A DNA stretch of 64,000 nucleotides from Squalus acanthias (taxonomy: Eukaryota): assembly GCA_030390025.1 (NCBI GenBank), contig CM059430.1:62744001-62808000 (forward strand), written 5' to 3'. Shown here in pieces: positions 2,995-37,328 of the stretch. The position numbers were made by a program, and so were the translations under genes. The number at the start of each line of letters is the position of its first letter. The stretch's first letter is position 1. The notes under the pieces were generated by a model. The model made no database searches. It was not told the DNA's origin and worked only from the letters and a program-made list of their open reading frames with translations.

Positions 2995-4985
2995 CAACTT
3001 GTAGATGGTACACATTGCAGCCACGGTAAGCCGGTGGTGGAGGGAGTGAATGTTTAAGGTGGTGGATGGGGTACCAATCAAGCGGGTTGCTTTGTCCTGG
3101 ATGGTGTCGAGCTTCTTGAGTGTTGTTGGAGCTGCACTCATCCAGGCAAGTGGAGAGTATTCCATCACAGTCCTGACTTGTGCCTTGTAGATGGTGGAAA
3201 GGCTTTGGGGAGTCAGGAGGTGAGACACTCGCCGCAGAATACCTACCCTCTGACCTGCTCTTGTTGCCACAGTATTTAAGTGGCTGGTCCAGTTCAGTTT
3301 CTGGTCAATGGTGACCGCCAGGATGTTGATGGTGGGGGATTAGGCGATGGTAATGCCGTTCAATGTCAATGGGAGGTTGTTAGACTCTTGCTTGTTGGAG
3401 ATAGTCATTGCCTGGTACTTCTGTGGCGCGAATGTTACCTGCCACCTATCAGCCCAAGCCTGAACGTTGTCCAGGTCTTGTTGCATGCGGACATGGACTG
3501 CTTCATTATCTGAGGAGTTCTGAATGGCGCTGAACACTGTGAAGTCATCTGCGAACATCCCCATCTCTGACCTTATGTTGGAGGGAACATCATTGATGAA
3601 GCAGCTGAAGATGGTTGGACCTAGGATTCTGCCCTGAGGAACTCCTGCAGCGATGTCCTGGAGCTGTGATGATTGACCTTCAACCACCACAACCATGTTC
3701 CTTTGTGCTAGGTATGACTCGAGTCAGTGGAAAGTTTTAGCACGATTCTCATTGACTTCAGTTTTACTAGGGCTCCTTGATGCCACACTCGTTCAAATGC
3801 TGACTTGATGTCAAGGGCTGTCACTCTCACTTCACCTCTGGAATTCAGCTCCTTTGTCCATGTTTGGACCAAGGCTGTAATGAGGTCGGCAGCCGAGTGC
3901 CCAAACTGGGCATCGGTGAGCAGGTTATTGGTGAGTAAGTGCCACTTGACAGCACTGTCGATTACACGTTCCATCACTTTGCTGATGATTGAGAGTAGAC
4001 TGATGGGGCATTAATTGGCCCTATTGGATTTGTCCTGCTTTTTGTGGACAGGACATACCTGGGCAGTTTTCCACACTGTAGGATAGATCCCAGTGTTGTA
4101 GCTGTACTGGAACAGCTTGGCTAGAGGCGCGGCTAGTTTTGGAGCACAAGTCTGCAGCACAATAGCCAGGATGGTGCCGGGGTTCATAGACTTTGCCATA
4201 TCCAGTGGGCTGAGCCGTTTCTTTATATCACGTGGAGTGAATCGAATTGGCTGAAGATGGTGGGGACCTCAGGAGTAGGCCGATATGGATCATCCACTTG
4301 GTACTTCTGTCTGAAGTAGCTTGCAAACGCTTCAGCCTTGTCTTTTAGACTCACGTGATGGTCTCCACCATCATTGAGGATGGGGATAGTAATAGAGTCT
4401 CCTTCTCCCGTTAGTTGTTTAATGGTCCAACACCATTCACGACTGGATGTGGCAAGACTGCAGAGCTTTGATCTGCTCCATTGATTGTGGGACCGTTTAG
4501 CCCTGTCTGTAGCACGCAGCTTCCAATTTTTAGCATGCATGTCGACCTGTGTTGCAGCTTCCCCAGGTTGGCACTTAATTTTTAGGTACGGCTGGTGCTG
4601 CTCCTGGAATGCTCTTCTACTTTCCTACGACCAGGGTTGGTCGCCTGGTTTGATGGTAATGCTCGAGTGAGGAATATGCCGGGCCACGAGGTTACAGATT
4701 GTGGTAGAATACAATTCTGCTGCTGCTGATGGCCCACAGCGCCTCATGGATGCCCAGTTTTGAGCTGCTAGATCTGTTCTGAATCTACCCATTTAGCACG
4801 ATGGTAGTGCCACATAACACGATAGAGGGTGTCCTGAGTGTGAAGACGGGACTTCGTCTCCACAATGACTGTGCGGTGGTCACTGCTACCAATACTGTCA
4901 TGGACAGATGCATCTGCGATAGGTAGACTGGTGAGGACGAGGTCAAGTAGGTTTTTCACTCATGTTGGTTGGCTCACCACCTGTC
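2995..4985 (-). mobile_element. CR1/L2-group LINE ORF2 fragment (second family)
   Basis: LLDLVLT..SDH, ALDIKSAFERVWH, GVPQG..LGP, FADD, IYKAQVR..MEY. Confidence 0.85.
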
Positions 4986-4989
4986 ACAG

Positions 4990-5720
4990 ATTAAAATCTA
5001 AAGAGAAAAACATATAAGAAGTAATTTGATACTAAAGGAGAAGAGAACAAAGGGGAATTAGAAGAACATAGATTCAAAAAAATAACATCTGGAAGACAAA
5101 GATAAATTACAAAATACAATTATCAACTAATATAAAAATAAATAATAAAGTGTTCCATAGACGCATAAATAACAAAAGGGAAATTAAAGTATGGATAATG
5201 TCTCCAAAAGATGAGCAAGATAAACTGACTGGTAATGACCGAGAAATGGCAGTTTTTACTAAAGAAGGTAACAAAATAGGCAATTCTCTAGAGCATGAGT
5301 TTAAAAAGAATAGTAATACAGTTGGGACAGAAAGTTAGAAAATAATTGACAAACTAGCAAAACCAAAAGAAGATAAAATCCCAATTCTGGATGTTATGCA
5401 TATATATATATATGTGTGTGTGTATTCTATAGGCCATAGTGCCAGAGGCCTGGTGGACAGGTAATGTTGATCCGATATTAGAAAAGGGAGATAGAACAAA
5501 ACCTGGGAACAATAGACCAGTCAGCTTAACGTCAGTGATAGGAAAGATATTGGATTCTAGACTGAAAGAAGTGATAGAATAAAACTTAGACGCAGGACAT
5601 ATCATAAAAAATAGTCAGCATGGATTCTGAAAGGCGAATGCATACTTAACTAACCTGATAGAATTATTTTAAAAGGTAACAGAAGGAGCTGACAAGGGTA
5701 ATGCAGTAGACGTCATATAC
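4990..5720 (+). mobile_element. Degenerate CR1 ORF2 fragment
   Basis: PGNNRPVSLTSVIGK-like segment at ~5500-5550. Confidence 0.65.
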
Positions 5721-5899
5721 CCACTCAGTTTTAGAACACAGCTACAAGAAGGTATAAGAAGAATGAAACCGAGCCTACCACCTGGCATGAAGCGGGCATT
5801 GGATTCGGGCACGAGAAATCCGAGTTCACGCTGCAAAATCCTCACTACCAACTGATGTGTGCCAAAATTAGGAGAGCTGTCCGACCGACTACCAATCAG

Positions 5900-7345
5900 C
5901 CAACATCCCACTGGCAGGACAGACACAACAGTGGGAGGGAGCGGCCATGGAAGTCCTCAACACTGAATCTGCATGGCATGGAAACCTCCTGCTGATTACC
6001 GCCCTCAGCTGATGAATGTTGAACATGACTTGGATTAAACACTGAGGGCACAGAATGTACTGCTGGGGGACTTCAGTGACCAAGTGTGACTCGGTAGCAA
6101 CACTACTGACCGACCTGGTTGACTGGGATTGTGGCGGTTGGTGATACAACAACCACGAGGTAAAATCCTACTGACCAAGTAAAACTTGAAAAACATGACC
6201 ATAACATTGGCAGGAGTGACCAACAAAATCCAGCCTTCACATTGAGACACGTGTTGTGTTAAATCAGATCAGATTAGATCAGAACAGATCTAGCAGCTCG
6301 AAGCTTGGCATCCATAAGGCAAGGTGGACCATCAGCAACAGCAGAATTGTATTCCACCACAATCTGTAACCTCATGGTCTGACATATCCCTTACTCTAAT
6401 ATTAACATCAAGCCAGGCGACCACCCCTGGTTCAAAAAGTAGTGTAGGCATGCAACAGAAACAGCACCAGGCATCCTTAAAATGAGCTGACAACCTGGTG
6501 AAGCTCTGTCTATACAGCGGAATCAGCATAGTGTAGATAGAACAAAGCGATGCCACAATCAACGGAGCAGATCAAAGCTCTGAGGTCCTTCCACATCCAG
6601 TTGTGAATGGTGGTGGACAATTAAACAACTAGCGGGAGGAGGAGGCTCCGTGAACATGCCCATCCTCAACGATGGCGGAGCTCAGCATGTGAGTGCAAAA
6701 GACAAGGCTGAAGCGTTTGCAACCATCTTCAGCCAGAAGGGCCGAATAGATGATTCACCTCGACCTCCTCCTGAAGTTCCCGCCAGTCAGTCTTCAGCCA
6801 CTTCCAAATCACTCCACTTGATATCAAGAAAAACGCTATGGGCCCCTGCAACATTCCAGCTGTCGTGCTCCAGACTTGTGCTCCAGAACTGGCCTCGCCT
6901 CTAGCCAAGCTACTCCAGTACAGTTACAACACTGCTATCTACTGAACAAGGTGGAAAATTGCCCAGTTATGTCCTGCCCACAAAAAGAAGGACAGATTCA
7001 ATCCGGCCAGTTACCGCCTCATTTGAGCAATTTGCTGATGACTGAGATTAGGCAAACTGATGGGAGGTGTCGTGGACAGAGTTGCCAGATGGCACATACT
7101 CACCAATAACCTGATCACCGATGCTCAGTTTGGGATCCGCCAGGACCACTTGGATCCAGGCCTCATTACAGCCTCAGTCCAAACATGGACAAAAGAGCTG
7201 AATTCCAGAGTTAATGTGAGAGTGAAGGTTCTTGACATCAAGGCTGCATTTGACCGAGTGTACCACCAAGGAGCCTTAATAACATTTAAGTCAACAGGAA
7301 TCAGGAGGATAACTCTGCACTGGATGGTAGTTGTGGCTTTTGGTA
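5900..7345 (+). mobile_element. LINE fragment of the same family as 2995-4985, opposite orientation
   Basis: PILNDGGAQHVSAKDKAEAFA, VQTWTKELNSR..LDIKAAFDRV. Confidence 0.8.
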
Positions 7346-8822
7346 GTTAGGGCTTTTTGGTCAAAAAGAAGAAGACTTAGAGGTGACGTGACTGAGGTCT
7401 TTACAATTATGAATCTGTTGGACAGGGGTGGGGTGGTGAGATAGTTTACTGCGTTAAATAGAGATCACGTAAATTTAAAACAATCATAGTTTTGGGTCCG
7501 TTGAGTTGATTAACCATTCGTATTCATATTTTTACTTTGATTATGTATTAATTGTAATATAAACCGTGACTATTTACTTGCAGCAAGGATTATCTTTATA
7601 TTAAGCCACCAGAAAAATACTAATCTACAAATCTGCCTGGACGGAGAGAGACAAGATGTGCTCCCATTGACATTCGAAGTTGAATACTTTGTCAATATGT
7701 ATCCACAGCCACGATAAATTCGCCGTGCATGTGTTGGTCGGAATATTTGCTTCTGGGCATATGTCTTCGCCTTGTCTTTTCAACCATCTTGTGCATAATC
7801 ATAGGCAATGTATTCTTTAAAGGGAATGCAAACAACCCGACGCTTCAGAACTGTTTTAAATTCCTTCAATGTTGTAATGGGAAATAATTCTCAACTTCTC
7901 AGTATCTTTCAATCCCCTTTGTTATGATACCGATCTGCTGGTTGCATGCTGTCTGGGAGCAGGAAATCCGTGTGGAAGTGCGTCCCCTGTGACATCACGA
8001 GTGGGGATTTCTTGCCTCTGCTCAATGTCCCGATGTGATTGGAACGGGACAGCAAGACGACACATTAGAAATTCTTTGCAAATCTGCTCCCTCATCACCT
8101 CCAAACTCTAGTTCTATTATGTCAAACAGTGTGATAGGAACAACTTGAATGAGCAACATTCCTCACAAAAAGGTTACAATTAAGGAGAAATTGAATAAAA
8201 TATGCTTGATGGGCCGAACTCTTGACTTTTTGGACAATATGTAGAACCTACCATTTGTGAGCCCATGTGATCAATGTTACAGTATTGTAGGGCATGAAGA
8301 AATTGCAGTGCATTTCAGAGATTTAACCAATTTAACTGTACTGAAATTTATGCGTGGATGAAATATAAAAGGCAGAAAATGTACAGGAAAACGCTTAGAG
8401 AAATATATGAAAATGGAATGTATAAAAGAGGAACAAACGCCTTAAGACGAAGCGCTTTCACATTCCCATCAGTAGCAATAGTGAGGTTAGGAAATTTACA
8501 ATGATAAATGTGAAGTAGAATCTCTGTTGAATGTGAACATTAAGTGTTGTTATAATTACACTGAAACATGCCATGTGAAATAACTGCTGTTCTTCAGCAC
8601 TAGATACGTTTTCAGTATGTTACAATTAACAGAGTTAAATTGAGAACAAGACGTGTTGGCGCTTTCAGCTGAGCCACAGAACTGCTTCCTTTACTGAGCT
8701 CGCATAAGCGATTCGTCCTTATAAATACGATAGCAAAATACTGCAGATGCTGGAAATCCGAAATAACAACAGAAAACGCTGGAAAAACTTAGCAGGCGAG
8801 GCAACATCCGTGGAGAGAGAAA

Positions 8823-8863
8823 CAGAGTTAACGTTTCAGGTCGAAGACCTTTCATCAGAACTG
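8823..8863 (-). ncRNA. Minimal hammerhead ribozyme motif, inverted copy
   Basis: Reverse complement of 11234-11274. Confidence 0.75.
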
Positions 8864-11233
8864 GAGACAGCAGGAAATCAAATAGATTTAAAGCAAAGAT
8901 AAAGCTGGGAAAAGGGGGAGGGGATGAAAGAACAAAAGGAGAGATTAAGAGACATTAAGAGACATTAAGAGATATTCAAGGCAAGAGGTGGTGTTAATGT
9001 GACAGGTTAAGGCTGAAAGAAGTGTGAAATGCAATGGCAGAATGAAGGACAGCTGCCAGCTTCTAGGAGGAAAATAAAAAGGGGGGGCAAATAAAAGGTG
9101 GATGAGAAAATAAAATATAACTGTGATGGGGCTAAGGTTATGATCTAAAATTGTTGAACTCGATATTGAGTCCAGAGGGCTGTAGCATGCCTAAACGAAA
9201 GATGAGGTGCTGTTCCTCGAGCTTATGCTGCGCTTCCGTGGAACAGTGTAATAGGCCAAGGACGGTGAGGTCAGAGTGGGAGTGAAGCGGTGAATTAAAG
9301 TGACAGGCGACCGAGAGCTCGGGGTCCCCCTTACGGACTGAACGGAGGTGTTCTGCAAAGCGGTCACCCATTCTGCGTTTGGTCTCCCCAATGTAGAGGA
9401 GACCACATCATGAGCAGTGAATACAGTATACTAAATTGCAGGAAGTACAAGTAAATCGCTGTTTCACCTGGAAGAGGTGTTTGGGGCCCTGGACAGTGGG
9501 AAGAGGGGAGGTATAAGGGCATGTGTTGCATCTCCTGTGCTTGCACGGGAAGGTGCCGGACGAAGGGGAAGGGGTGCTGGGGGTGGTAGAGGAGTGGACT
9601 AGGGTGTCGCGGAGGGAGCGGTCCCTGCGGAATGCTGAAAGGGGAGGTGAGGGGAAGATACGTTTGGTGGTGGGATCACGCTGGAGGTGGCGGGAAATGG
9701 CGGAGGATGATCCGTTGAATGTGGAGGCTGGTGGGGTGAAAGGTGAGGACAAGGTGAACTCTATCGTGGTTCCGGGAGGGAGGGGTAGGGGTGAGGGCAG
9801 AACTGCGGGAGATAGAACGGACACGGTCGAGGGCCGTGTCGACCACGGTAGAGGGGAATCCTCGGTTGAGGAAAAAGGAAGACATGTCGGAAGCACTGGT
9901 ATGGAAGGTGGCATCATCAGAGCAGATGCGGCGGAGATGGAGAAACTGGAAGAATGGAATAGAGTCCTTACAGCAGGCGGAGTGGGAGGAAGTGTAGTCC
10001 AGGTAGCTGTGGGAGTCAGTGGGCTTGTAGTGAATGTTAGTCAATAACCTATCCCCAGATAGGTTATTGACTAACATTCACTACAAGCCCACTGACTCCC
10101 ACAGCTACCTGGACTACACTTCCTCCCACCCCGCCTCCTGTAAGGACTCTATTCCATTCTCCCAGTTTTTCCGTCTTGCCGCATCTGCTCTGATGATGCC
10201 ACCTTCCATACCAGTGCTTCCGCCATGTCTTCCTTTTTCCTCAACCAAGGATTCCCCTCTACCGTGGTCGACACTGCCCTCGACGTGTCCGTTCTATCTC
10301 CCGCACTTCTGCCCTCACCCCTGCCCCTCCCTCCCGGAACCACGATAGAGTTCCCCTTGTCCTCACCTTTCACCCCACCAGCCTCCACATTCAACGGATC
10401 ATCCTCCGCCATTTCCGCCACCTCCAGCATGATCCCACCACCAAACGCATCTTCCCCTCACCTCCCCTTTCAGCATTCCGCAGGGACCGCTCCCTCCGCG
10501 ACACCCTAGTCCACTCCTCTACCACCCCCAGCACCCCTTCCCCTTCGCCCGGCACCTTCCCGTGCAAGCGCAGGAAATGCAACACATGCCCTTATACCTC
10601 CCCTCTTCCCACTGTCCAGGGCCCCAAACACCCCTTCCAGGTGTAACAGCGATTTACTTGTACTTCCTGCAATTTAGTATACTGTATTCACTGCTCATGA
10701 TGTGGTCTCCTCTACATTGGGGAGTCCAACGCAGAAAGGGTGACCGCTTTGCAGAACACCTCCGTTCAGTCTGTAAGGGGGACCCCGAGCTCCCGGTCGC
10801 CTGTCACTTTAATTCACCGCTTCACTCCCACTCTGACCTCACCGTCCTTGGCCTATTACACTGTTCCACGGAAGCGCAGCATAAGCTCGAGGAACAGCAC
10901 CTCATCTTTCGTTTAGGCACGCTACAGCCCTCTGGACTCAATATCGAGTTCAACAATTTTAAATCATAACCTTAGCCCCATCACATTTATATTTTATTTT
11001 CTCATCCACCCTTTTATTTGCCGCTCCCTTTTTTTTCCTCCTAGAAGCTGGCAGCTGTCCTTCATTCTGCCATTGCATTTCACACTTCTTTCAGCCTTAA
11101 CCTGTCACATTAACACCACCTCTTGCCTTGAATATCTCTTAATGTCTCTTAATCTCTCCTTTTGTTCTTTCATCCCCTCCCCCTTTTCCCAGCTTTATCC
11201 TTGCTTTAAATCTATTTGATTTCCTGCTGTCTC

Positions 11234-11274
11234 CAGTTCTGATGAAAGGTCTTCGACCTGAAACGTTAACTCTG
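11234..11274 (+). ncRNA. Minimal type I hammerhead ribozyme motif (Penelope-type)
   Basis: agtt-CTGATGA-a-aggtc(ttc)gacct-GAAAC-GTT-aact: conserved core, stem II, loopless palindromic stem III. Confidence 0.75.
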
Positions 11275-11584
11275 TTTCTCTCTCCACGGATGTTGCCTCG
11301 CCTGCTGAGTTTTTCCAGCGTTTTCTGTTGTTATTTCGTCCTTATAAATATTTAGCAACACATCAGTGTAGCGAAAACCAGAAGGTAAAAACCACAGCTA
11401 ATCGCTTATGGTTTATCAGAACTGATAGATCGCCCAGACATTGACCTTTTAAATCATGTACATAGATGTGCCACTGTTTCGGTTAATGGATTATCAAAAT
11501 AATCTACACCACTTTGTCTCCAGTTTGAAGCAACGAATTGTTACTAGACGAGAAAATCGAATGTGAAGTAAACTGAAACATTAT

Positions 11585-11924
11585 GGGCCGGATATTCCGA
11601 CACCCACGGGTGTGTACGAGTTGTGTACACACCCGTAGGGGCCTTGCAAGGGCCGGTTTCAGGCATGCAAAGCACTTGCGCTAAAACCCGGCACTTCCGA
11701 TCTGTCAACAATTCTCTTGACAGATCCTGCGCCTGCCCTGGAGAAGTGCCTCCACAGGCAGAGATTTCCGCTTTCTGCACAAACTCCGCCCGCTGAAAAC
11801 CGGTAAAAAATCATAGTCCTGGTAAAAGCAGGTGTAAGGCGCGCGAGCCAGCAGGTCAGTGCGTAGATTTTTCCCGATCGGAGGCATCCGCACGCAGGAA
11901 GCCTCCTATCGGAAAATCCGGTCC
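11585..11924. mobile_element. Short Harbinger-type MITE
   Basis: TIR gggccggatattccga / tcggaaaatccggtcc; similar to the ends of 27116-27852. Confidence 0.7.
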
Positions 11925-12170
11925 ATGACAGGTAAACAGTTGCACATTTACTTCAATTTTGCGGCCCCCGTCATTCGGGAAAAAACTGCAACGTTCTTGT
12001 AGAAACCTGGGCTAATCAAGGCAAATCAGCACGGATTTCGAAATGGCAAACCGTGCTGGACTTCCCAGCGGTTGTATATAATATATTTTTATTGAATTCA
12101 TGTATGATGATAATTAGTTACAGCAAGGCTATAAGCGTATCCTTGTAATCGAAAGAGTAGAGATTTGTCT

Positions 12171-13186
12171 TCAGTTAAATAATAGATTTAACATTAAAGT
12201 ACGTCAGGAAAGTTACATTTTTCTTTAAAGCAGCTAAAAGAAAATGTATCAAATAATTGAACAGTAAGTAATAACTATAGACTGCTTTCTCTGATATATC
12301 TCTGGAATGCTTTACCTCCTGGGGGAATGGTATCGCACGCTTTACAAACGCGTGGAGTTGATATGGCAGCGGAATGTGATCAGTACACACCAAAAATGTG
12401 CCTTCTGCATCGAAAATGTAATGCTAATTGATTCTTCCTTCTGTGTACACAGGCTCTGTTACTCCTCTTTGTTTTTTTGTCTGCAACTGGCCATACTCTG
12501 TGCTTCTTACGTTATTTTTGCATATCCCCGTTTTCTTTGAGCCAGTCAATGCTAGAGTCGCGTATATCAGCTTGTCACGGCCGGTCCCTTGTTCAGTCTG
12601 TAAAGCCAATGTTTGGGTGTATTGTTAATTGGCCTTTTTGCAAGTTCTGCGGACTGCTGCTCAAAGTAGACATCAGAAGGACACACAAATAGCCACACAA
12701 ATACAACACACGGTCAAAGTCAGCACAAACATATTCCCTCTGCTATCGCATGAATGTTGATGTTACACCGGTGATCTATGTTTCTCTGATCTGTCACTTA
12801 GCCCTACCTGATTGTACACGGCTCCCTGCTCTTCACGTTTACGTCTTGGAGTTTTCCTGGCTTTGCTCATTTCTAAAGCAGCATACTGCACGATCTCAGC
12901 CGCTGCTCCCTGCATGGGTCACAATGAAAATGTTTGATTATGTCGTCAGTACATTGCCTTCACCAGTTTACGTACCGCTGATCAAACATTGAAGAGATTG
13001 ACCGGGGCTTGAGATCAAGTGCACAAACCTTAGTTCATATATATTTAGATAAGTGGGAATATCAAGGCACTGTGGTCGCTATAACTAATATTTAAACCTG
13101 TCAATGATCATGCTGCAATACAGTGTTACAGAAATGTTTAAAGGAGTGGCAGCTTTAGAACGTAAAGTTTTATTCAAATCCAAAGA
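12171..13186. repeat. ~1-kb direct duplication, copy A (partner ~15493-16484)
   Basis: Colinear similarity from tcagttaaataatagat to ttcaaatccaaaga. Confidence 0.9.
12424..12597 (-). CDS. Duplicated exon 6 (distal copy), intact, motifs LIYATL, TEYGQL, PVYTEG; candidate alternative last exon
   Basis: Same acceptor ggctttacag, same 174-nt length, open frame; minus-strand AATAAA at 12088-12093. Confidence 0.65.
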   Translation of the reverse strand, partial: TEQGTGRDKLIYATLALTGSKKTGICKNNVRSTEYGQLQTKKQRGVTEPVYTEGRIN

Positions 13187-15492
13187 GATACATATTCCAG
13201 GCTACTTGACTTTTATAAGATATAGGCAAAATATAAAAGGAGGGGCGGTAGCCCTGATAATAACGGAGGGTATAAAGACAGTAGAAAGCAAGCATCTTAG
13301 CTCGGAAAATCAAGGTGTAGAATCATTTGGTGGACCTAAGAAACAACAAGGGGCAACACGAGTGGTACTAGTGCACAGGCCCCCTATCAGTAGCTGTAGT
13401 GTCGGGCACAGTATAAATCAGGAAATTAGACGTGCGTGTAACAAGGGTAATGCAGTAAACATTGAGGAGATTAATTTTCATATAGACTGGGCAAACCAAA
13501 CTTGCAGTAATTGTGCAGCGAATGAGTTGATGAAATGCATTAAAGATAGTTTTCTAGATAAAAATATCGAAGAACAGGCTATTTTAGAACTAGTATTGTG
13601 CAATTAGACAGGGTTAATTAATAACCTTGTATTAATGGAGCCTCTGGGGAAGAGTGATCATAATATGATAGAATTTTATATTGGCCCGGATTTTGTGGCG
13701 GATTTGATGGCGTACTCTCAGAGTACGCAGTCATACCACCTTTGAAATTGGCCACAAGTTTAGGATTTTTGTATGCACTTGCAGTCTGTCAACGTACGCA
13801 TTGACAGACCATCCACACACCAACCAAAAACTTAATTGCTGGTGCAGAGTTGGGCTAATCGCCCACCAACTGCACAGCAATTATGTATGGAAATGTTCTG
13901 GCTGGTGGAAACAGGGGCAGGGCCTGTTTCCACAGCGTAAGAGGATACCCAAAATGAAAAAAAAATGCTTTTTTTAATTAAATGACATCCAGCAACATTA
14001 AAAGCTTTAATGAGAAGCAATCCTAGTGTAAGTTAAAGCGGCAGGTTTTTTAAATAATGTTTACATTTCATAATTATCTGCACAGTGCACAGTATTTATT
14101 TAGAAGTGGGAATTGCGAGTAATGAATTGGATTCCCATGATAAAAGCTAAATCTGTAATGTATTTTAAAGGCTGTAGTAATGAAGTAATGTAGTAATTTA
14201 AATGAATGAAAGACAATCTGTTTCCTGATTGGAGAACCAGGCCCACGTGTTCCCAGGTACGCTTCTGCACAGGCTGCTTCCCTGGGATCTCTGAGCCATT
14301 ACGCTGCCCTCCTACTCGCAGCATCAGAGAGCAAGTTTACAAAGCAGGCCACCATCAGGTTGGTGCATATTCTTTTTGTAGGTCCATGTCATACTCCAGA
14401 GTGACGCCATGGAGCGGAATTTTGGGGCTATTGAGTTTGAGAGTGATTTAGTTAAGTCCGAATTTGGGAGTAAATCTGAACAAAGCAAACTACTTAGGTA
14501 TGAGGGGTGAGTTGGCTAAGGTAGATTGGTGAACTAGATTAACAGATATGATGATAAATAAGAAATGGCAAGCATTTAAAGAATCAATTCATAATTCACA
14601 ACAAATATACATTCCCTTAAGGAATAAGAACCCCACCCAAAAATTGGTCCAACTGTGGCTTACAGGAGTGTTTAAAGTAGTATTAGATTAACGGAAAAGG
14701 CTTATAATGCTGACAAAAAGGAGAAGTAAACCTGAGGATTTTAGAATTTAGCAAAGGATGACCAAGAAATTGATAAAGAAAGAGAAAAGAGAATATGAGA
14801 GTAAACTAGCAAGAGACATGCAAACAGATTGTAAAAGCTTCTATAGATATGTAAAAAGGAAGATGTTAGCGAAAATAAACTTGGGTCCCTTACAGGCAGA
14901 GACAGGAGAAATTATAATGGGGAATAAGGAAATGGCAGAAACATTATACAAATATTTTGCGTCTGTCTTCAGAGAAGAAGACGCAAAAAACATTCTGTAA
15001 ATAGTGGGGAACCAAGGGTCTAGTGAGAATGAGGAACTTAAAGAAATTAGTAACAGTAATGAAATTGTACTGGAGAAAATATCGGGACCAAAAGCTGACA
15101 AATCCCCTGGACCTTATGACCTACACCCTAGGGTTTTACAACAGGAGGCGACAGAGATAGTGGTTGCATTGGTTTTGATCTTCCATAATTCCTTAGATTC
15201 TATAACGGTCCCTGTGGACTGGAAGGTAGCAAATGTAACCCGCTATTCAAGAAAGGAGGGAGAGAGAAAACAGGTAATTATAGGCCAGTTGGTCTGACAT
15301 CAGATGTAGGGAACATGCGAGAATATGTTATTAGAGATGTGGTAACAGGGCAGTTAGAAAATCATAATATGAGTGGGCAGAGTCAACACGGATTTATGAA
15401 AGGAAAATCAGGTTTCAAAAATCTGTTAGAGTTTTTCGAGCTTGCAATTAACAGGGTAGATAAGAGGGAACCAGTAAATTAGTGTATTTACC
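13187..15492 (+). mobile_element. CR1 ORF2 fragment truncated at both ends, between the two exon-6 duplicates
   Basis: Endonuclease motif IPGY..GGAVAL through KSPGP..LHPRVL, ending in early RT. Confidence 0.85.
13683..14429. mobile_element. Harbinger-type MITE nested in a CR1
   Basis: ggcccggatttt .. aattttggggct, TSD att. Confidence 0.7.
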
Positions 15493-16484
15493 ATCAGTTA
15501 AATAATAGACTTAACATTAAGCATGTCAGGAAAGTTACTTTTTTCTTAAAAGCAGCTAAAAGAAAATTAATCAAATAATTGAACAGTAAGTAACGACTAT
15601 AGACTGCATTCTCTGATATATCACTGGAATAGATTACCTCTCGGAGGAATGGTGTCGCATGGTAAACATAGCAGCGGAATTCGATCAGTACACACCAAAA
15701 AAGTGACTTCTGCAGCTAATTTTATTGCTAATTGATGCTTACTTCTGTGTAGACAGCCTTTGTTACTCCTCTTTCTTTTTTTGTCTGCAGCTGGGCATAC
15801 TCTGTGCTTCTTTCGTTATTTTTGCATTTCCCCGTTTTTTCTGAGCCAGTCAATGCTAGAGTCGCATACGTCAGCTTGTCACGGGCTGTCCCTTGTTCAG
15901 TCTGTAAAGCCAACGTTTGGAAATAGTGTTAATGATTAGGTTTGCAGGTTCTGTGGACTGCTGCTCAACGCAGGCATCAGAAGGAGACACAAATAGTCTT
16001 AGATACAACACACGGTCAAAGTCAGCGCAAACATATGCCCTCCGCTATCGCATGAATGTTGATGTTCCACCAATGATTTATGTTTCTCTGATCTGTTACT
16101 CCTACCCGAGCGTACACGGTTCTTTCTTCTTCACGTTTAGTTCTTGGAGTTTTCCTGGCTCTGCTCAAATCTAATGCAGCATAATGCACGGTCTCAGCCG
16201 GTGCTCCCTGCATAGGTCAGAAAGAAAATGTTTGGTTATGTGGCCAGTTCATTGCCTTCACCAGTTTACGTACCGCTGATCAAATGTTGAACAGATTGAA
16301 CTGGGCTAGACATCAAGTGCACAATCCATAATTCATATATATTTAGATAATTGGGAATATTAAGACACAGTGATCATTATAACTAATATTTAAACCTGTC
16401 AATGTTCACTCTGCAACACAACGTTATAGAAATGTTTAAATGAGCGGCAGCTTTAGAACATAAAGGTTTTTTCAAATGCAAAGA
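15493..16484. repeat. ~1-kb direct duplication, copy B
   Basis: Colinear with 12171-13186. Confidence 0.9.
15728..15901 (-). CDS. Exon 6 (proximal copy), cytoplasmic tail with LTYATL, TEYAQL and AVYTEV tyrosine motifs
   Basis: Acceptor ggctttacag, phase 0, 57 aa then TAG; AATAAA at 15721-15726 immediately after the stop. Confidence 0.8.
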   Translation of the reverse strand, partial: TEQGTARDKLTYATLALTGSEKTGKCKNNERSTEYAQLQTKKERGVTKAVYTEVSIN

Positions 16485-19400
16485 ATAGATGATTGTATAA
16501 ATAGATATCACCTAGATTTTCAACCAAACAGGCAGTTATCTTTTCAGCCATTTCACATTTTTTACCAGCAAGTACATTTCTAACCACGATTTAAATGGCT
16601 CACTAAGACCGGACAAATACTTTTAGTAAATAGACTTAATCTGTGAATATTTCCATGGTGTTATGGTCCCTCTGTGCGTGCGTCCCGTTTGGTACTGCGC
16701 ATGGGCACTCGATTCGACCGCGCATGCGCAGTAGCGAACAGTGCGACGGCCTTCTCCCGCGTGCTTTCCTCGGCTCCGTGCGAAGAAGGACATGGGATCG
16801 GATGTGGGTTGGGGGAGAGAAGAGGGCATCGAAGGGGGGAGGGAGGAGAGTGGGTCGAAGGGAGGAGGCGAGCGGATCGAAGTGGGGGAGGAGAGGAGAT
16901 CGAAGGGGGAAGAGAGGAGAGGGGATTGAAGGGGGAAGAGAGATGGGGGGATCGCAGGGGGTGAGGAGAGGGGATTGAAGGGGGGAGGGAGGAGAGTGGC
17001 TCGAAGGGAGGAGGCGAGCGGATCGAAGTGGGGAGAAGAGGGGATCGAAGGGGAAGAGAGGAGTGGGGATCAAAGGGGGTTGAGGGGTTGGAGGGGGAGG
17101 AGAGAGGCTCAAAGCGGGAGGAGGAGAGCGTAACGAGGGAGGAAGGAGGTGGAATCAAAGAGGGGAGCAGAGGGGATGGAATAGGAGGAGAGTGGATCGA
17201 AAGAGGAAGAGAGCTGAACGAAGGGGGGAGAGGACCTCGGATAGAGAGGAGCTCGCAGGGGGAGTGGAGCTCGCAGGGGGAGAGAGGAGCTCGGAGTGCG
17301 GAGGGAGGAGCTCAAAGTGGGGGGAGGGTCAGGAACGTGCAGGGAGAAGGTCAGGAACTCGCGGTGGGGGAGGTCAGGAACTCGGTGGGGAAGAATGTCA
17401 GGAGCTCCTGAGGAAGGGGGGCGGAAGTTCATCAACTCGGGGAGAGAAAGTCAGGAGCTTGTTGGGGGGAACACGGTGAGAAAGGTGAGGAGGCGGAAAA
17501 AATGTGATCCAGGTCTAAAGGAGGGGGTTGAGAGCAACAAAGTGATCCAGATGGGAAGATACAGATGCCCGTGTGCACTCGATCCAGTCGCGCATGTGCA
17601 GTAACAAATGGTGGGGCGGCGGCGGCCTGAACTGGCACACTTTCGTCAGCTGCGTGCGGAGAAGGTCAGGGGATTGTGGGAGGAGAGGAGAGGGGATTGA
17701 AGGCGAGAGGAGAGGGGATCAAAGTGGGCACCAGAGCGGATCCAAGGGGGCAGTAAGGAAGAGGGATCGAAGTGTGGGAGAGGAGCTCGGAGAGAGAGGA
17801 GCTCGGAGAGAAAGGAGATCAGAGAGGGGAGAGAGGCGAGAGGAGAGGGGGGAGAAGGTCAGAAACTTGTTGGGGAAGCACAGTGAGAACAGTGGGGAGA
17901 GAAGGTCAGGAACTTGTTGGGGGAGCACAGTGGGAACAGTGGGGAGGTGGGAAGAATGTGATCCAGGTCTAAAGGAGGGGAATGAGAGCAAGGAGGTGAT
18001 CCAGATGGGAAGATAGATCACGTTCTCCCGCCCTCTGTTAGGACTGCATTACGCTCTTCCACCCCACTCCCTTTCCACCTGCTCAACGTTCTCCTTCTCC
18101 TCCCCCATCAACCGCCCACCCCCACCCCCCAGACCGCAGCAGTTGAAGAAGGCAGCTCACTACCATCCTCTCAAGGGCAACTAGGGATGGGCAATAAATT
18201 AATTAATTTAAAAAAACGTGAACGTATCCTGTGTTGATCCTGCAACCTGAATAACATTACATTTATGTGTTATTTGCCAGACTCGACTATTCTAATGTTC
18301 TCCTGGTCAGCCTCCCATTTTCCACCCTCAATGAACTTGAGCTCATCCAAAACTCTGCTGCACTTATCCTAACATGCAGCAAGTCTCATTTACCCACTAC
18401 CCCTGTGCTCGTTGACTTACATTGGGTCATGGTCCACCAACAACGTTCCCGCTAAACTATACGGTCACGTCCCTGTCAGGAGGTCCCAAGCAGGCTGCTT
18501 TCCGGCTTTTGAATGGGAGAAATAGTGCAAGCGGGAAATTTTGAATCTGTTGTGCAGCCCGTTAAAGGGGCCAAAAATTAGGGGGAACATTGTACACCAA
18601 CACCTTGATTTTAAAATTCTCATCCTCATTTTAAAATCCTTCCATGGCCTCACCTCTTCATATCTGAACTCTGCATTGTGAGCGCTGTGAGTGCTCCTAA
18701 CCTTGAGGGTGAGCCCTGTCAGTTTTCTGAAAGCAGTAATGTTAGCACTGTGAGCTCTGGAGCCTGACTGTCACAATGAATGGATCATATTACTCATTGC
18801 AAAGATCTTGATTACTCTGCAGCAGGCATGATCAAATTACACATTCCAGACAAACTGTTGGGTGTGTCTTGTCCTCCAAGGGGACCGCTGAGACACGACT
18901 GTACGCTTAAACTATTCTGACGTGATTATGATATGCTCTTTCCATTATAGCAAACTTGACAATTCAACCATCTGCCGGGATGAATGAATGAACGTACCAG
19001 CTCTTCACGGCGGTTCGGTCCCATTACACATTCTTCTTTACCTGAAAAGGAATGAAATTGAATGATATTGAAAGATTGAAATATTTACTCAGTTTCCGTG
19101 TCAATGATTGAAAAGACATTTCTAGAGTCAGAACAAAGCCGAAAATAATTTCCAATTCCGGTTTGTGCCGACAGTGTTTGAAATCCCAGCCCTTGTAGCG
19201 ATCAGCAATGATGGATTTGGGGATTTTTTTCGGAAACTAAGGGAATCGTTTTTGACATTAAGGGAATCAAAGGATATGGGGATAGGGTGAGAAAGTGGCG
19301 TTGAGGTAGAAGATCAGTCATGATCTTATCGCATGGCGGAGCAGGCTCGAGGGGTCGTATAGCCTACTCCTGCTCCTATGTCTTATGTTCTTATGTTTAC

Positions 19401-22400
19401 AGCCATTCCCCGGCCGGAGCCTCACACTCTTTCACTCAAACTAGTTGTGCATCCACAACAGAATTTGTTGGAAAGTGATTGTGTGTCAGGGTACATGTCA
19501 TTTATTATGCTGCAAAGGGGACATTTTTGTTGCAAACATCCAGATAATTATCTCCATTTTTATTGCGATTCTCTGAGAATATCTGCGTTTTAAAATGCAT
19601 TTGGTACAATCGGCGCTCTCTGAAAACAGATCACAAGGTTTTCAACTTTAATTCCTAATCGAGTTCTCATTTCCCCGTGTTACCCGGAGACTGTCACTAA
19701 CCGTGGCGTTTTGAACTATAATCAAGGGCTTACTGTAGATCTTACCGTCATTATTCTGCAGTCGGCACCGCGTCCCAATGAAGATCATTAGCACTAGAAA
19801 CGCCAATCCACCCACTGCACACCCAGGAGCCCAGAAGTAAAGTAAATTAACGTCATTACCTGCAAGATTAATAGGAACATTAAGTTATGGCGGGTGTGGT
19901 TAAAAATAGGCCTCAAGATAGATTATTGGTTAAACTATGGTATTGCTTTCAGTAACTCCGCGGTACAGAACGGCAATAAGAAAGCTTAAATACAAAACAT
20001 GATTTCTTTTAGATATAATGGCCCAGAAATTGATCTCGCTCTGTTCCCGCGGGCGTAAGGAGCAGGCGCGATCTCTCACTCCGCGTTGGCTTTTTCAGAT
20101 CCAGCTGGCACGAACTTGATGTTACACACATCAGCTGGGCAGTGCTTGCGTATCCCACCGGCGTAGTGAATTCGTGCGAGCTGTGGGATCACGTGACTCA
20201 GTTAGAGCCAATGGCAGCACACCATCTTCCATTCATAAGTTTCACATAGGTGCTGTGAAATCTATGAATCTTACACCCCCCCAAAATAACAGCTAAAACT
20301 CAATTAAATTAAAAAAAACCCATCACATTAATAAAATAAGTATAGTTAAATAAATTAACCATTTTAAATAAAAAATTAAATTTTTGAAAAAATTTAAAAT
20401 CTTTTAAAAAGTTATAAAAATAAACTTACCTGTCTTTAAAGTCTCTAAAAAAGATATACCTGTTAAAAAAAATTCAAAAAAATACTTAATTCACTACTTA
20501 CCTTGTTAAAAGTGGGTCTTACTCCTTTTTCCATTTCTAAAATCTTCCGTCCTTACCTGCGCGTCCAAAGCACTAAGTGCACAGCGTGCGCGCAGCCTGT
20601 AGCGCGCACGCGATGCACCGAGGAACCGCCCCCTTTTCCAAAGACCAAGTGCCGGTTTTCAGCGCATGCGCAGGGCATGCAGAAAACCGGCAATTGGAGA
20701 GAGAATACGCGAGAGTACGCAGTGCGTACTCTCGCGCAGCGGGATCAATTTTTAGCCCAATAGTTGAATTAATTTCTTCATCGAATGGATCTGACATTCT
20801 GGATTAATCTGCGCATCGCACTACCGGTTTTGGGCTCTCAAAACATTGGCCCAGAAATTGATCCGGCTGCGCGAGAGTACGCACAGTGTACACTCGCGCA
20901 GCCAGACTTCAATTGCCGGTTTTCAGCATGCACTGCGCATGCACTGAAAACCGGCAATTGATGGAAGTGAAAGGGGGCGGGTCCTCAGTGCACCGCGTGC
21001 GCGCTACAGGCTGCGCGCACGCAGTGCACTTCATCGCTTGCGCACGCAGGTAAGTATTGAAGATTCTGGAAAAGTAAAAAGCAGGCGCAGGAGCCTCTTT
21101 TAACCAGGTAAGTACATAATTAAGTAGTATTTAGAATTTTTTTTTACAGGTAAATCTTTAGTAGCGACTTTAAAGACAGGTAAGTTTATTTTTATAACAT
21201 TTTAAAAGATTTAAAATTTTTTCAAAAATTTATTTTTTTGTTTAAAAAGGTTAATTTATTTAATTACACTTATTTTAATAATGTGATGGGTTTTTTTTTT
21301 AATTTAATGGAGGTTTAGCTCTTCTTTTGGGGGCTTGTTGTATTCCTAGTTTTCACAGCAGTTCAATGGCCGCTGTGAATTCTATGAATGAGAGCTTGGT
21401 GTGCTGCCATTGGCTGTAACTCAGTCACGTGATCCCACAGTGCACTCGAACTAACTCCGCACTGTGGAATCACGATGCACTCGCAGCTGATGGCTGGGAC
21501 ATGAAGTTCCAGCGAGCTGGGACTGAAAAAGCCAAGGCGCAGTGAGACATCGCGGGAAGGGCTTACCCTCGCACGAACCCTCACACTGCAATTTCTGGGC
21601 CATTGATTTAGGAGAGTTAGAACACGAGAGAGATCAATTTCCCTTGACCAAAAGACTTGTTCTTGTTCTTGACCTTTCTTATTTATTAACATATGGTTTG
21701 AGGAAATTGACGGCAATTTTATCACAAGCGTTTCTTCGTTGCCCGCACGATATTCCGGATTGCAGCAGTCTGTTAAAAATCCTCTTTCAATTACCTGAAC
21801 TGTGTTTATTACAGTAGGAATGACACTGAATAGTAAAGGATATCAACGGGCGATTGTTCATTGATTATTGTCTTGGGGATGGGAAGAGTTGTTCCCAATA
21901 TGATTTATTGAACCGGCTGTACTGTCGCCTCTTTGCAGGCACAGGTTAAATGAGATTTATGAGACAGATTCCAATTAAACCCGCTGTGACAGGACGGGTG
22001 AGGGGTAAAAGCTGGCGAGGGGGTTAATTTCAGATCTCTGCAGTAGAATTAGCCGATAGGGGGATCAGCATCAGGAATTGCATTGGGAGAAGCCCGAGTG
22101 CATGACTGCAGCTCCTGGTAACAGTCTTGGTGCAAGGAGAGCAGGCAATCGTAAAGAATAAAACAATCTTAATATTGAAACGAAATTAATAATAAGCAGG
22201 AGAGGAAACATAATCGGATAGAAAAGATAAACTCCTGTTTATGATTGTTATACAATATAATTAAAGGAATTTGAATGCAAATAAGGTTTGACTGAGAATA
22301 TTTGTGTGGCGGGCGATATAACCAGGTTTTACAACACATCGGTTTCAATTATACATTAAAACATGAATTTAATGCATTTCTTTGAAATTTCCCATCAGCC

Positions 22401-25038
22401 TTCCGTGGACTATCGTCATGATTATTTATAAGTACAAACTGTACGATATATCTCTTTATGAATTTAACAGTGGCTGGCTCTCCTTTTTGGCCTGTTGGCC
22501 TCGTACCTTGGTTGGATTTAGAAACAACATAGGTGACAAGAGCTGGAGTCTCGAGAGAGACATGAGAAACCAAACAGGTATAACTGGCATCGCTTGGGAC
22601 AGGCTCTGTCTGGACCAAAGAGCTGGAAACTTCATACAGTCCCTCCGTGTTCTGCTCTTTCCTGGTATGTATTCCTAATGCAATTTCGACGCCATTTTTA
22701 TTCCAAGTGAGGGTGAAATTCTCCGGATAAAACGCAGCCGTTTTACACACAAGAGTCAGAGAAGCAGCTGAATCCCCTTCAGTGGAGACAATCTTCAGTG
22801 GGGTTGGGGCCGCTGCGGAACAGAGATTGAACAAAATCGAGTTACTGGGCACCATTGGGAGATTAAATATGATTCTGATTTACGTTCGGTCCATTTTATT
22901 ATAATAGCACCATTAGAAAGCGCAGCCTCCTGTCCATTTAATGTTACGCTCATCATCTACACACACCTGATCCATATCTCTCATAGACGCCCGCATCTGT
23001 TCAATTTACCCGCGCTATCAAGTCCAAGCCTTTGAGTTACTCAGCAGACAATTCGCAACGATTTGCTAATCAATGTTTGGTTTTCATAGTCCAAAGAATT
23101 AAGTAAATAAACCTCGGGGGTAAGTTTGCGCGCTGAGTCCCTCCGTGTTAGGAACAGATAGACAGTGAACAGTAATCTGCACATTGTGGATGGCAAAATG
23201 AGGGCCTTAGTCGATATCGGAGAGAATTCGCAGCCGAAGCATGAAAATTGGCGAAAGTAATTATATTCGGTTGAACCTTAGCAGGTTTCAGCAACACAGC
23301 TGTTCTGTGTTGTTTAATTTATTGGACATTCGTAGAATCAAAGAATCACAGAAATTTATGGCACGGAAGGAGGCCATTCGGCCCATCGTGCCTGCGTCGG
23401 CCTAAAAAGAAGTATACAGCCTAATCCCACTTTCCAGCTCTTGGTCCGTAGCCTTGTAGGTTCTGGCACTTCAAGTGCATATCCAAGTACTTTTTAATGT
23501 GATTAGGGTTTCTGCCTCTACCACCCTTGCAGACAGTGAGTTCCAGACCTCCACTACCCTCTGGGTGAAAAGATTTCTCATCAACTCCCCTATAATCCTT
23601 CTACCAATTACTTTAAATCTATGCCTCCTAGATATTCGCCTCCCTGCTGAGGGAAATAGACCCTTCCTATCCACACTATCCAGGCTCCTCATAATTTTAT
23701 ACAACTCAATCAAGTCTCCCCTCAGCCTCCGCTGTTCTAAAGAAAACAAGCCCAGCCTATCCAATCTTTCCTCATAGCTAAAATTCTCCAGACATGGCAA
23801 CATCCTCGTAAACCTCCTCTGTACCCTCTCTGGTGCAATCACATCTTTCCTGTAATGTGGTGACCAGAACTGTACGCAGTACTCCAGCTGTGGCCTAACT
23901 GGTGTTTCAAACACTTCTAGCATAACCTCCCTGCTCTTACATTCATTGACTGGGCGAATGAAGCAAAGTATCCCGGACGCCTTTTTAGGTTAATGAGGTG
24001 ACAACGTTGTGTGTTCCAAGCTCCAGTTTGTTGAGTGAAACCGTTGAACAACAGTTAGTTTCACGCTAACATTATGTAAGAATTAATTTCAGGAATGTTA
24101 AACCGCAGGGACAGCGATGGGGGCAGACAGAGCATCACAAATGGGCTGAGAGCCGTGTATATGTTGGGAGAGATGCATTAATACAAACGATATTCAGTCA
24201 GTTATATGCTTGGAATTTGTTCCAAAATTCCGCTATCAGACATCTGATGTGTAAATTGTCTTTGGAGTTATAGTCTAATTGGTTAATATTGATACATTTT
24301 GCAATACTCTGCCTGTGATATTGAATGTCGAATCAGCAGTTCTACACGGAGCACACGAACTTACAACTTTACTTATCGCGAAATGTATCAATACACATGT
24401 TTATATTGCCAAAAGCGGTGCAATAAAGCAATCACAAAACATCCCCGTTTGTTATGTTCGATATATTTACGACTGTGCCGCTCTCCTGTGTTTCACACTT
24501 ACCATGCACAATTAGCTGTGATCCGGTTCCATTTCCTCGAGAAAGTCCCCGATGGAACACTGCACAGTGATAGACTCCAGAGTCTTGGAAAGTCGCGCTC
24601 AGCAACTGAAAGAACCCGCTCGCCTTACTTGTCAGACCAAATAGTTTTCTGTTATCGGCGCTTATGCGCAGGTATTCATTCTCACCCTGTTTCCACCAAT
24701 ACACTCTTACCCAGGAATGGCCCTGGGAGATGGGAAACATGCAGTAGAAGGTGATGTTCCCCCCTCTGGATACAGTCGCTTGTTTGGGCACTTGAAACAC
24801 TCTGAACGTATTGTTGTCCGCCGCTGTCAAAAATATAGACAAGTACAGGTTAATTGTATTAGCCACGACCTGGAGATAGAAGACAGAAAAAACCTAGATA
24901 GAGGTATCGCGGTTCACTAAATAATGTGGAAACTACTTCGGATATATAAATTAAAGTAGCTGGGACAATGAATAAAGAGGTACCTGTGTAAATAATCCCC
25001 CGGAGAGTCAGGCACAGGAAAAGGATACTCGCCGACAT
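15728..25038 (-). CDS. Non-rearranging IgSF receptor, leader-V(J)-C1-TM-ITIM/ITSM tail, 6 exons, 337 aa (SIRP/NKp30-like)
   Basis: Exons 25038-24984, 24823-24503, 22812-22507, 19859-19746, 19041-18998, 15901-15728. All introns are GT-AG with compatible phases (1,1,1,1,0). Total 1014 nt, no internal stop. Confidence 0.88.
16795..18015 (+). repeat. Purine (G/A)-rich low-complexity tract with degenerate ggatcgaagggg units
   Basis: Strong purine skew on the plus strand; two related modules in tandem. Confidence 0.8.
18998..19041 (-). CDS. Exon 5, short cytoplasmic exon (GKEECVMGPNRREEL)
   Basis: Acceptor ttccttttcag, donor CTG|gtacgt; 44 nt converts phase 1 to phase 0, as exon 6 requires. Confidence 0.75.
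19746..19859 (-). CDS. Exon 4, transmembrane segment (GNDVNLLYFWAPGCAVGGLAFLVLMIFIGTRCRLQNND)
   Basis: Acceptor atcttgcag, donor G|gtaaga, 114 nt, phase 1/1; uncharged hydrophobic stretch followed by basic residues. Confidence 0.85.
20020..20758. mobile_element. Harbinger-type MITE
   Basis: TIR ggcccagaaattgatc / gatcaatttttagccc, 3-bp TSD aat, AT-rich core. Confidence 0.8.
20848..21601. mobile_element. Harbinger-type MITE, same family, opposite orientation
   Basis: TIR ggcccagaaattg / caatttctgggcc, TSD att. Confidence 0.85.
22507..22812 (-). CDS. Exon 3, Ig C1-set domain
   Basis: LTLVCKTAAFYPENFTLTW, YTCLVSHVSL; acceptor ttccgcag, donor G|gtacga; 306 nt. Confidence 0.93.
23335..23985 (-). 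mobile_element. CR1 3' end in intron 2
   Basis: VRPQLEYCVQFWSPHY..LFSLEQRRLRGDLIE plus 3' tail. Confidence 0.9.
24503..24823 (-). CDS. Exon 2, Ig V-set domain with germline J-like G strand
   Basis: Motifs ITFYC, VYWWKQ, DSGVYHC, GNGTGSQLIVH; acceptor ttgacag, donor G|gtaagt; 321 nt. Confidence 0.93.
24984..25038 (-). CDS. Exon 1, signal peptide MSASILFLCLTLRGIIYT
   Basis: ATG at 25038, hydrophobic leader, phase-1 donor G|gtacct. Confidence 0.8.
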
Positions 25039-35164: not shown

Positions 35165-35396
35165 AGATTACAGATTCCTAGAAAGTGGTCTTCAGCAACA
35201 GAAAGAACCTGCCTCCTTTTGTTTTCAGACCAAATCAGTTTCTGTTATCGGCTCCACTTTGCAGGTATTCATTCTCATCCTGTTTCCACCAACGCACTTC
35301 GACCCATGACTTGTCCTAAGGGGAATTACCCAGTAGAATGTGATGTCTGTCCCTTTGATTGCAATGACTTGTTCAGGAATTTAAGCCACTCTGGTC

Positions 35397-37328
35397 ATAA
35401 GAACATAAGAAATAAGAGCAGGAGTAGGCCATATGGGCCCTTGAGCCTGCTCCGCCATTCAATAAGATCATGGCTGATCATCGACCTCAACTCCACTTTC
35501 CCGCCAAATCTCCATATCCCTTGATTCCCCTAGAGACCAAAAATCTATCTATCTCAGCCTTGAATATACTCAAAAACTCAGCATGCACAGCCCTCTGGGG
35601 CAGAGAATTCCAAAGATTCACAACCCTCTGAGTGATGAAATTCCTCCTCATCTCAGTCTTAAATGGCCTACCCCTTATCCTGAGACTATGCCATCTAGTT
35701 CTAGACACTCCAGCCAGGGGAAGCAACCACTCAGCATCTACCATGTCAATCCCCTTCAGAATCTTGTATGTTTCAATGAGATCACCTCTCGTTCTTCTAA
35801 ACTCCAGAGAGTAGACCCGTTCTACACAATCTCTCATCATAGGACAGCCCTCTCATCCCAGGAATCAATCTAGTGAACCTTTGTTGCACCACCTCCAAGG
35901 CAAGTATATCCTTCCTTAGATAAGGAGATCAAAACTGTGCACAGTACTCCAGGTGTGGTCTCACCAAGGCCCTGTACAATTGTAGCAAAGACTTTCTTAC
36001 TCTTATACTCCAACCCCCTTGCAACAAAGGCCAACATGCCATTTGCCTTCCTTATTGCTTGCTGTACCTGCATGCTAGCTTTCTGTGTTTCTTGCACGAG
36101 GATACTCAAATCTCTCTGAACACCAACATTTGAAAGTTTCTCACCAATTAAAAATATTCTGTTTTTCTATTCTTCCTACCAAAGTGAATAACCTCACATT
36201 TCCCTACATTATACTCCATCTGCCAACTTACTGCCCACTCACTTAGTCTATCTATATCCCTTTGCAGATTCTTAGTGTTCTCCTCACAGCTTACTGTCCC
36301 ACCTAGCTGTGTATCATCAGCAAACATGGATACATTACACTTAGTCCCTTCATCTAGGTCATTAAAATAGATTGTAAATGGCTGAGGGCCCAACACTGAT
36401 CCTTGTGGCACCCCACTCGTTACAGCCTGCCAACCTGAAAAAGATCCGATTATACCTACTCTCTGTTTTCTGTCCATTAACCAATCCTCTATCCGTGCTA
36501 TTATAATACCCCCAACCCCATGAGCCCTAATATTGTGCAATAACCTTTGATGTGGCACCTTACCGAATGCCTTTTAGAAATCCAAATATACTACGTCCAC
36601 TGGTTCCCCTTTTTCTACCCTGCTAGTTTCATCCTCATAAAACTCTAATAAATTTGTCAAACACGATTTCCCTTTCATAAAACCATGTTGACTCTGCCTA
36701 ATCATGTTATTATTTTCTAAGTGCCCTGATACCACTTCCTTAACAATGGATTCCAGCATTTTCTAGACGACTGATGTCAGGCTAACTGGCCTGTAGTTCC
36801 CTGTTTTTTCTCTCCCTCCTTTCTTGAATAGCGGTGTTGCATTTGCAACCTTCCAATCCGCTGGGACCATTCTAGAATCTAGGGAATTTTGGAAGATCAA
36901 AACCAATGCATCCACTATCTCTTCCGCCACCTCTTGTAGAACCCTAGGGTGTAGGCCATCAGGTCCAGGGGATTTGTCAGCTTTTAGTCCTATTAGTTTC
37001 TCTAGTACTTTTTCTCTACTTATATTAATTACGTTAAGTTCCTCACCCTCATTAGACCCTTGGTTCCCCACCATTTTTGGCATGCTTTTTGTGTCTTCTA
37101 CTGTGAAGACAGATACAAAATATTTGATTAATGTTTCTGCCATTTCCTGATTCCCCATAATAATTTATCCTGTCTCAGCCTCTAAGGGACCAACGTTTAC
37201 TTTTGCTACGCTCTTCCTTTTACATACTTGTAGAAGCTCTTACAATCTGCTTTGATATTTCTTGCTAGTTTTCTCTCATATTCTATTTTTTCCCTTTTTA
37301 TCAATTTTTTGTCAACCTTTGCTGGTTC
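35397..37328 (-). mobile_element. CR1 LINE inserted in the pseudo-V exon
   Basis: RT motifs GVPQGSVLGP and FADD; TSD ctggtc at 35391-35396 and 37329-37334. Confidence 0.92.

Follow-up and report, generated by a model that had tools for sequence, protein, structure and literature searches.

Does an immune-type receptor gene that carries two complete cytoplasmic tails in tandem make use of both? The question is raised by a 64,000-nucleotide stretch of the Squalus acanthias genome (hereafter the window, numbered from its first letter), in which a preliminary description had noticed a duplicated last exon and proposed switchable signalling tails behind one ectodomain. The receptor gene lies complete on the minus strand, its seven exons joining into a translation of 371 amino acids without internal stops. 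The exons upstream of the tails are:

24984..25038, minus strand: leader exon, 55 nt, with its ATG at 25038; matches the leader of two chondrichthyan gene models, P0001 and P0002
24503..24823, minus strand: V-set Ig exon (Pfam V-set, E 1.8e-08), a single exon with a J-like GNGTGS strand at its end
22507..22812, minus strand: C1-set Ig exon (Pfam C1-set, E 3.9e-11)
19746..19859, minus strand: transmembrane (TM) exon, recognised from its translation; hydrophobic stretch without a charged residue
18998..19041, minus strand: short membrane-proximal cytoplasmic exon S, 44 nt, phase 0 at its end

The V domain and its J-like strand share one exon and C1 comes next, the layout of non-rearranging VJ-C1 genes. 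From two ITIMs, in the usual definition of the motif, and the uncharged TM segment we infer an inhibitory receptor. A protein search (9 hits among 73 candidates) found the nearest relatives in shark and chimaera gene models, with V domains 50-74% identical; a PDB search returned generic antibody and VNAR domains alone.

Behind exon S, a two-exon tail unit occurs twice, at 16484-15486 and 13186-12163. The copies are 84.5% identical over 1024 alignment columns, far beyond chance, and each comprises exons of 102 and 174 nt with AG acceptors and open frames. The region reads as follows:

16106..16207, minus strand: proximal tail exon A1, 102 nt, phase 0, AG/GT sites, ITIM VHYAAL
15728..15901, minus strand: proximal last exon A2, 174 nt, with LTYATL, TEYAQL, AVYTEV and a TAG stop
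15721..15726, minus strand: proximal AATAAA, beginning 2 nt past the stop and followed by a U/GU-rich run; likely a replacement poly(A) signal, to judge from its setting
13187..15485, plus strand: spacer, a partial LINE antisense to the gene, with a ~750-nt insert at 14429-13683
12808..12909, minus strand: distal tail exon B1, 102 nt, AG/GT sites intact, ITIM VQYAAL
12424..12597, minus strand: distal last exon B2, 174 nt, with LIYATL, TEYGQL, PVYTEG and a TAG stop
12088..12093, minus strand: distal AATAAA, family-conserved, 331 nt past the distal stop and outside the repeat

What had first been said of the last exons largely holds. Both (15901-15728 and 12597-12424) keep acceptor, frame and stop, their three motifs read as described, and indels are confined to the non-coding flanks, all gaps in the 1024-column alignment falling outside coding sequence. 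The repeat unit is not the single exon it was taken for: a 102-nt ITIM exon had been overlooked in each copy. A Heptranchias gene model has the same 102-nt exon (27/34 identical), and because the exon is present in each unit and in that model, the expected junction is 18998->16207 instead of the proposed 18998->15901. Each copy does have its own AATAAA (at 15721 and 12088), but the two are non-homologous, one lying at the proximal stop and the other outside the repeat. Both tails contain two canonical ITIMs and a TxYxxL motif, and the window's distal tail has lost none of the five tyrosines and neither ITIM. Pfam assigned neither last exon to a family. The tail exons A1 (16106-16207) and A2 (15731-15901) also resemble each other, at about 35-43%, hinting that the receptor tail itself grew by exon duplication.

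Weight had also been placed on the third motif, whose +3 residue is valine in the proximal copy and glycine in the distal one. That difference is real, but valine is not a family feature: among 20 tails (three frameshifted ones read in the aligned frame), the position +3 of the last tyrosine is V in 8, A in 9 and G in 3, and it is A in all four other-shark models that reach the motif (P0002, P0004, P0007 and P0009). Since the residue varies across the family, its loss is a poor ground for a signalling switch, and we rejected it as one.

The gene belongs to a large cluster. A DNA search of the same genome with the tail unit gave 41 matches, the best 20 of which were analysed; 614 kb including the window and 50 kb elsewhere were read as sequence, and the remaining cluster was seen through 3.5-kb loci only. 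More than 20 V-C1-TM genes of two subtypes occupy C6:62.19-62.81 Mb. Six of the best 20 of 41 tail units are paired in tandem, with 3.2-3.3 kb between the members of each of the three pairs; the window gene has a double tail, and so do two other genes, near C6:62.64 and 62.50 Mb. The proximal copies make up one clade and the distal copies another (bootstrap 95 and 100), each repeating the branching of the other, and this shared branching order indicates that the double tail arose once, before the three genes split. Both sister genes have V-exon deletions of 22 nt and 7 nt in common; one has in addition a stop in V and a lost S donor, the other a C1 frameshift. The proximal last exon is frameshifted in both sisters (2/2) and the distal tail open in both (2/2). 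Because distal tails stay open behind two broken genes, the open frame of a distal tail is no proof of its use.

Exchange between paralogs is common in this cluster. Ectodomain and TM exons of different subtypes are combined in 7/10 neighbour genes examined: in six of the ten, V and C1 are only 70-77% like those of the window gene and the TM exon 88-91% like, and one of the ten shows the reverse. A gene at C6:62244469-62254714 pairs a window-type ectodomain (90-91%) with a second-subtype TM, and tblastn recovered only a short last-exon piece of its tail; it is possibly a paired receptor with a different signal. Another paralog has a direct tandem of two V exons, the second frameshifted (C6:62689056-62689712). 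Damaged tails also occur in single-tail paralogs (a frameshift in L010, a GG donor in L011, a stop in L020), and in genes of one group (L003, L005, L007, L009 and L011, the L003 group), 92 nt of the intron that separates the tail exons recur ~1.5-2.2 kb ahead of the first of these exons. A literature search, light on subscription literature and supplementary gene tables, found no paper on this V-C1 receptor cluster or its doubled tail.

The window holds further rearranged sequence. An orphan V-exon fragment with stops lies at 35165-35393, and C1, TM and tail exons were not found after it. A 2.6-kb near-perfect palindrome (96-99%) spans 8759-11338 with its centre near 10055, and older inverted repeats occupy 3744-7302 and 20311-21298. 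An exact direct repeat of at least 300 nt (45977-46276 and 56178-56477, 10.2 kb apart) possibly marks the ends of a young LTR element.

Where, then, did the distal unit come from? It had been described as a tandem duplication of the gene's own exon; the LINE-intron junction that it shares with other paralogs points instead to fusion with a neighbour. The spacer is a high-copy repeat. It is labelled a LINE, perhaps a CR1-like one, because an element at 36151-37221 that belongs to its family bears RVT_1; Pfam found no family in the spacer in any of three frames. Alignment of the distal unit across the LINE-intron junction is unbroken with L010 (13682-12074) and with 5/5 L003-group genes (13430-12074), and neither the proximal unit nor L002 carries an insertion at this site. 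Proximal homology ends at 15486, which is 242 nt past the stop and ~90 nt before the family AATAAA position; past ~15486, the LINE interior is entered at the same point in 3/3 proximal copies. The distal unit runs on into the normal 3′ flank. A family AATAAA is found 287-332 nt past the stop in 16/17 non-proximal tails and in none of the 3 proximal copies, and an AATAAA 2 nt past the stop occurs in 3/3 proximal copies and 1/17 other tails. The flanks of the two tail parts trace to different paralog subtypes, with the breakpoint in or at the repeat element. Remnants of leader, C1, TM and S exons were sought in the spacer and none was found; a 14-nt V match there was taken as chance. Over 11900-16700, sequence matches of three putative RNA runs labelled as the same species (88% likeness) cover the repeat spacer only and 0/4 tail exons, and are uninformative on expression.

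The tail tree adds one firm exclusion. Pairing the window's proximal and distal copies as sisters is rejected (p-AU 4e-145), and a recent duplication inside the window's gene was discarded on this result. Neither a clade of proximal plus distal copies (p-AU 0.43) nor one of distal copies plus LINE-bearing tails (p-AU 0.375) is rejected, and in the best tree the proximal copies join the LINE-free tails, with weak support (60/58). Because the tree cannot separate the two groupings, the argument on origin comes down to the shared insertion.

Our preferred reading, to which we give a probability of about 55%, is that the distal tail is the stranded 3′ end of a neighbouring paralog, left by what was likely one old deletion and likely unused today. 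A single deletion between a gene free of the LINE and a neighbour carrying it, by which the neighbour's end was fused to the first gene, would account for the intron site, the cut 3′ UTR and the AATAAA pattern. Two head-to-tail paralogs would have recombined, with the break inside the LINE of the second gene's intron and the fusion point at ~15486. The deletion would have cost the first gene the far part of its 3′ UTR along with its poly(A) site, and the second gene everything from its promoter through the short exon S. The hybrid gene would then have been copied twice more, both copies breaking in the V exon. Transcripts of the window gene would mainly be spliced S->A1->A2, with their 3′ end set by the AATAAA immediately past the proximal stop; the resulting 371-aa receptor is predicted to recruit SH2-domain phosphatases through its two ITIMs, and the distal exons would drift. 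The gene may plausibly have depended on the distal end right after the fusion, while the proximal tail still lacked a poly(A) site, and have become free to lose it when the +2 AATAAA appeared.

Evidence on whether the distal exons drift came from substitution rates and from simulation. Rates were taken from 19 pairs, all as pairwise or three-point distances among existing sequences, and the comparisons share branches. Between the window's two copies, 25.5 non-synonymous and 8.5 synonymous changes give a dN/dS of 1.13; this check had been called for in the preliminary description, and its outcome counts against the argument for switchable use. The ratio of dN to non-coding divergence is 1.01 and 1.35 for the distal tail against its sisters, 0.74-0.90 against four other tails (P 0.09-0.35), and 0.44-0.64 for the proximal tail against four close single-tail genes (P 0.002-0.039). 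Four L003-group pairs give 0.21-0.59, and two single-tail pairs also lie near 1 (1.01 and 0.96). On the window's distal branch, three-point distances give 0.09-0.10 changes per codon versus 0.03 per non-coding site, the neutral expectation being ~0.07; its eight distal-specific residues include some at positions otherwise conserved in 15-16 of the 16 remaining tails. The distal residues evolve roughly as fast as non-coding sequence and the proximal ones roughly half as fast, but the contrast is not significant: unique residues number 8-16 in distal and 4-7 in proximal tails, relative-rate tests reach p<0.05 in 1/13 comparisons, and Fisher tests in 0/13.

Neutral simulations, with branch lengths from the tail tree and results given as a range over three indel rates, leave the window's distal copy open with P 0.28-0.50 and the end branches of the two sisters open with P 0.21-0.41. 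For all three distal copies to be open with splice sites, P falls to 0.014-0.094, or to 0.0015-0.043 with the stem counted; the window copy was chosen for being open, which inflates this argument against drift. The lines of evidence for and against drift roughly offset.

Against the fused, idle 3′ end stand readings in which the second tail is not real, arose otherwise or is spliced in. An assembly artefact is conceivable in a repeat-rich cluster, but we give it hardly any credit: the identity is 84.5%, the copies thus differing by ~15%, and the tandem pair is found at three places, at the other two with its own divergence, so that the second copy was rejected as an assembly echo. It is also improbable that the unit was duplicated inside one LINE-bearing gene and that later exchange swapped in the 5′ part and proximal intron of a LINE-free paralog, leaving the distal copy unused. 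Frequent exchange between paralogs and the proximal-plus-distal clade at p-AU 0.43 would suit such a history, which nonetheless needs two events where fusion needs one and has to face a cleanly empty proximal intron site and a best tree that places proximal copies, weakly, with LINE-free tails.

Use of the distal tail, as an alternative or an added tail, is less likely than its disuse. The earlier proposal of alternative last-exon use retains its mechanical basis: the terminal exons are homologous and lie in tandem, an acceptor, a stop and a poly(A) signal belong to each, and the reading frame is kept in all six exon combinations tested; A1-B1-B2 yields 405 aa with three ITIMs, and the two-exon tails have two ITIMs each. 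Its specific argument fails on the same ITIM count in both tails, the variable +3 residue, the dN/dS of 1.13 and the open frames behind broken sisters. A neighbour's complete tail might have been captured by deletion and kept as a fast-diverging second end, with either tail, or a three-ITIM tail, made by splicing; this, too, we consider doubtful. More narrowly, the distal unit could, whatever its origin, be an alternative end (S->B1->B2 or A1->B2) for a second 371-aa isoform. Every join is in frame, 3/3 distal copies keep splice sites, stop and the family poly(A) site, and survival of all three by drift alone is unlikely on the simulations (P 0.014-0.094); human NKp30 isoforms, in the available text of PMC7226588, differ in cytoplasmic tail and signal. 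Yet this alternative end is unlikely, as purifying selection is not apparent in the distal residues, broken genes precede two of the three open copies, and a canonical AATAAA follows the proximal stop, with three more AATAAA/ATTAAA and one at 13174 before B1. Little would switch in any case, because both tails carry the same ITIM count. Less likely again is a lengthened tail in which A2 is skipped and A1->B1->B2 makes the 405-aa receptor. That product would be in frame with seven tyrosines and three ITIMs, and may have been the likely productive route right after fusion, before the proximal AATAAA arose. The frameshifted proximal last exons and open distal tails of both sisters (2/2) fit it, as does the resemblance of A1 to A2, from which tails in this family may have grown by exon addition. 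The window's A2, however, is intact and its lineage evolves about half as fast as neutral sequence, the sisters already have breaks upstream, and no such protein appeared among the candidates (0/13 longer proteins passed a comparison with the distal last exon, a weak test).

The window gene can be compared with several known systems. SIRP-alpha has an uncharged TM and paired LxYxxL and TEY-type tail motifs, and the SIRP family ectodomain is V-C1-C1. The window gene shares the uncharged TM and an ITIM-bearing tail with these paired motifs, but it is V-C1, with one C1 exon between V and TM, and spreads five tyrosines over two exons. NKp30/NCR3 has a single V domain and a charged TM residue, whereas the window gene has a C1 domain and a TM stretch without charge. 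The chondrichthyan models P0001-P0004, automatically named ‘tyrosine-protein phosphatase non-receptor type substrate 1-like’, ‘tapasin-related protein-like’ and ‘CD276 antigen homolog’, are like the window gene in leader-V-C1-TM order, with V domains 67-74% identical, and P0002 also carries the two tail exons, in matching order. The doubled tail is absent from all 9 retrieved chondrichthyan proteins. UrIg, PRARP and NKp30 are described in the accessible parts of PMC10751288 and PMC12227049 as non-rearranging VJ-C1 genes; like them, the window gene encodes V and its J-like end in one exon, with C1 after it, but it combines one C1 with an ITIM tail. Hybrid KIR genes, as far as the consulted portion of PMC2816608 goes, arose by deletion between head-to-tail paralogs with breakpoints in repeats and exchange of tails. 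The likeness extends to the head-to-tail immune-receptor cluster, the repeat breakpoint and the exchanged cytoplasmic tail; KIR hybrids, however, replace the tail, whereas the window gene keeps its own with the donor tail behind it, and the ectodomains are unrelated. In Drosophila pip, use of tandem duplicated, mutually exclusive terminal exons has been shown, according to the text available of PMC9013439. The window gene resembles it in its tandem homologous terminal-exon clusters, each able, on sequence grounds, to end a transcript, and differs in that its second tail looks intergenic in origin.

The receptor family is a large cluster of non-rearranging V-C1 receptors, by inference inhibitory, that swap ectodomains and tails. 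On the fusion reading, the doubled tail would be an everyday product of recombination among clustered immune-receptor genes, and it would caution against taking a duplicated exon to be in use because its frame is open. Should the distal tail prove to be spliced in, the locus would show a gene gaining alternative signalling tails from its neighbour in a single step, a route that the three dated copies would allow to be tested.
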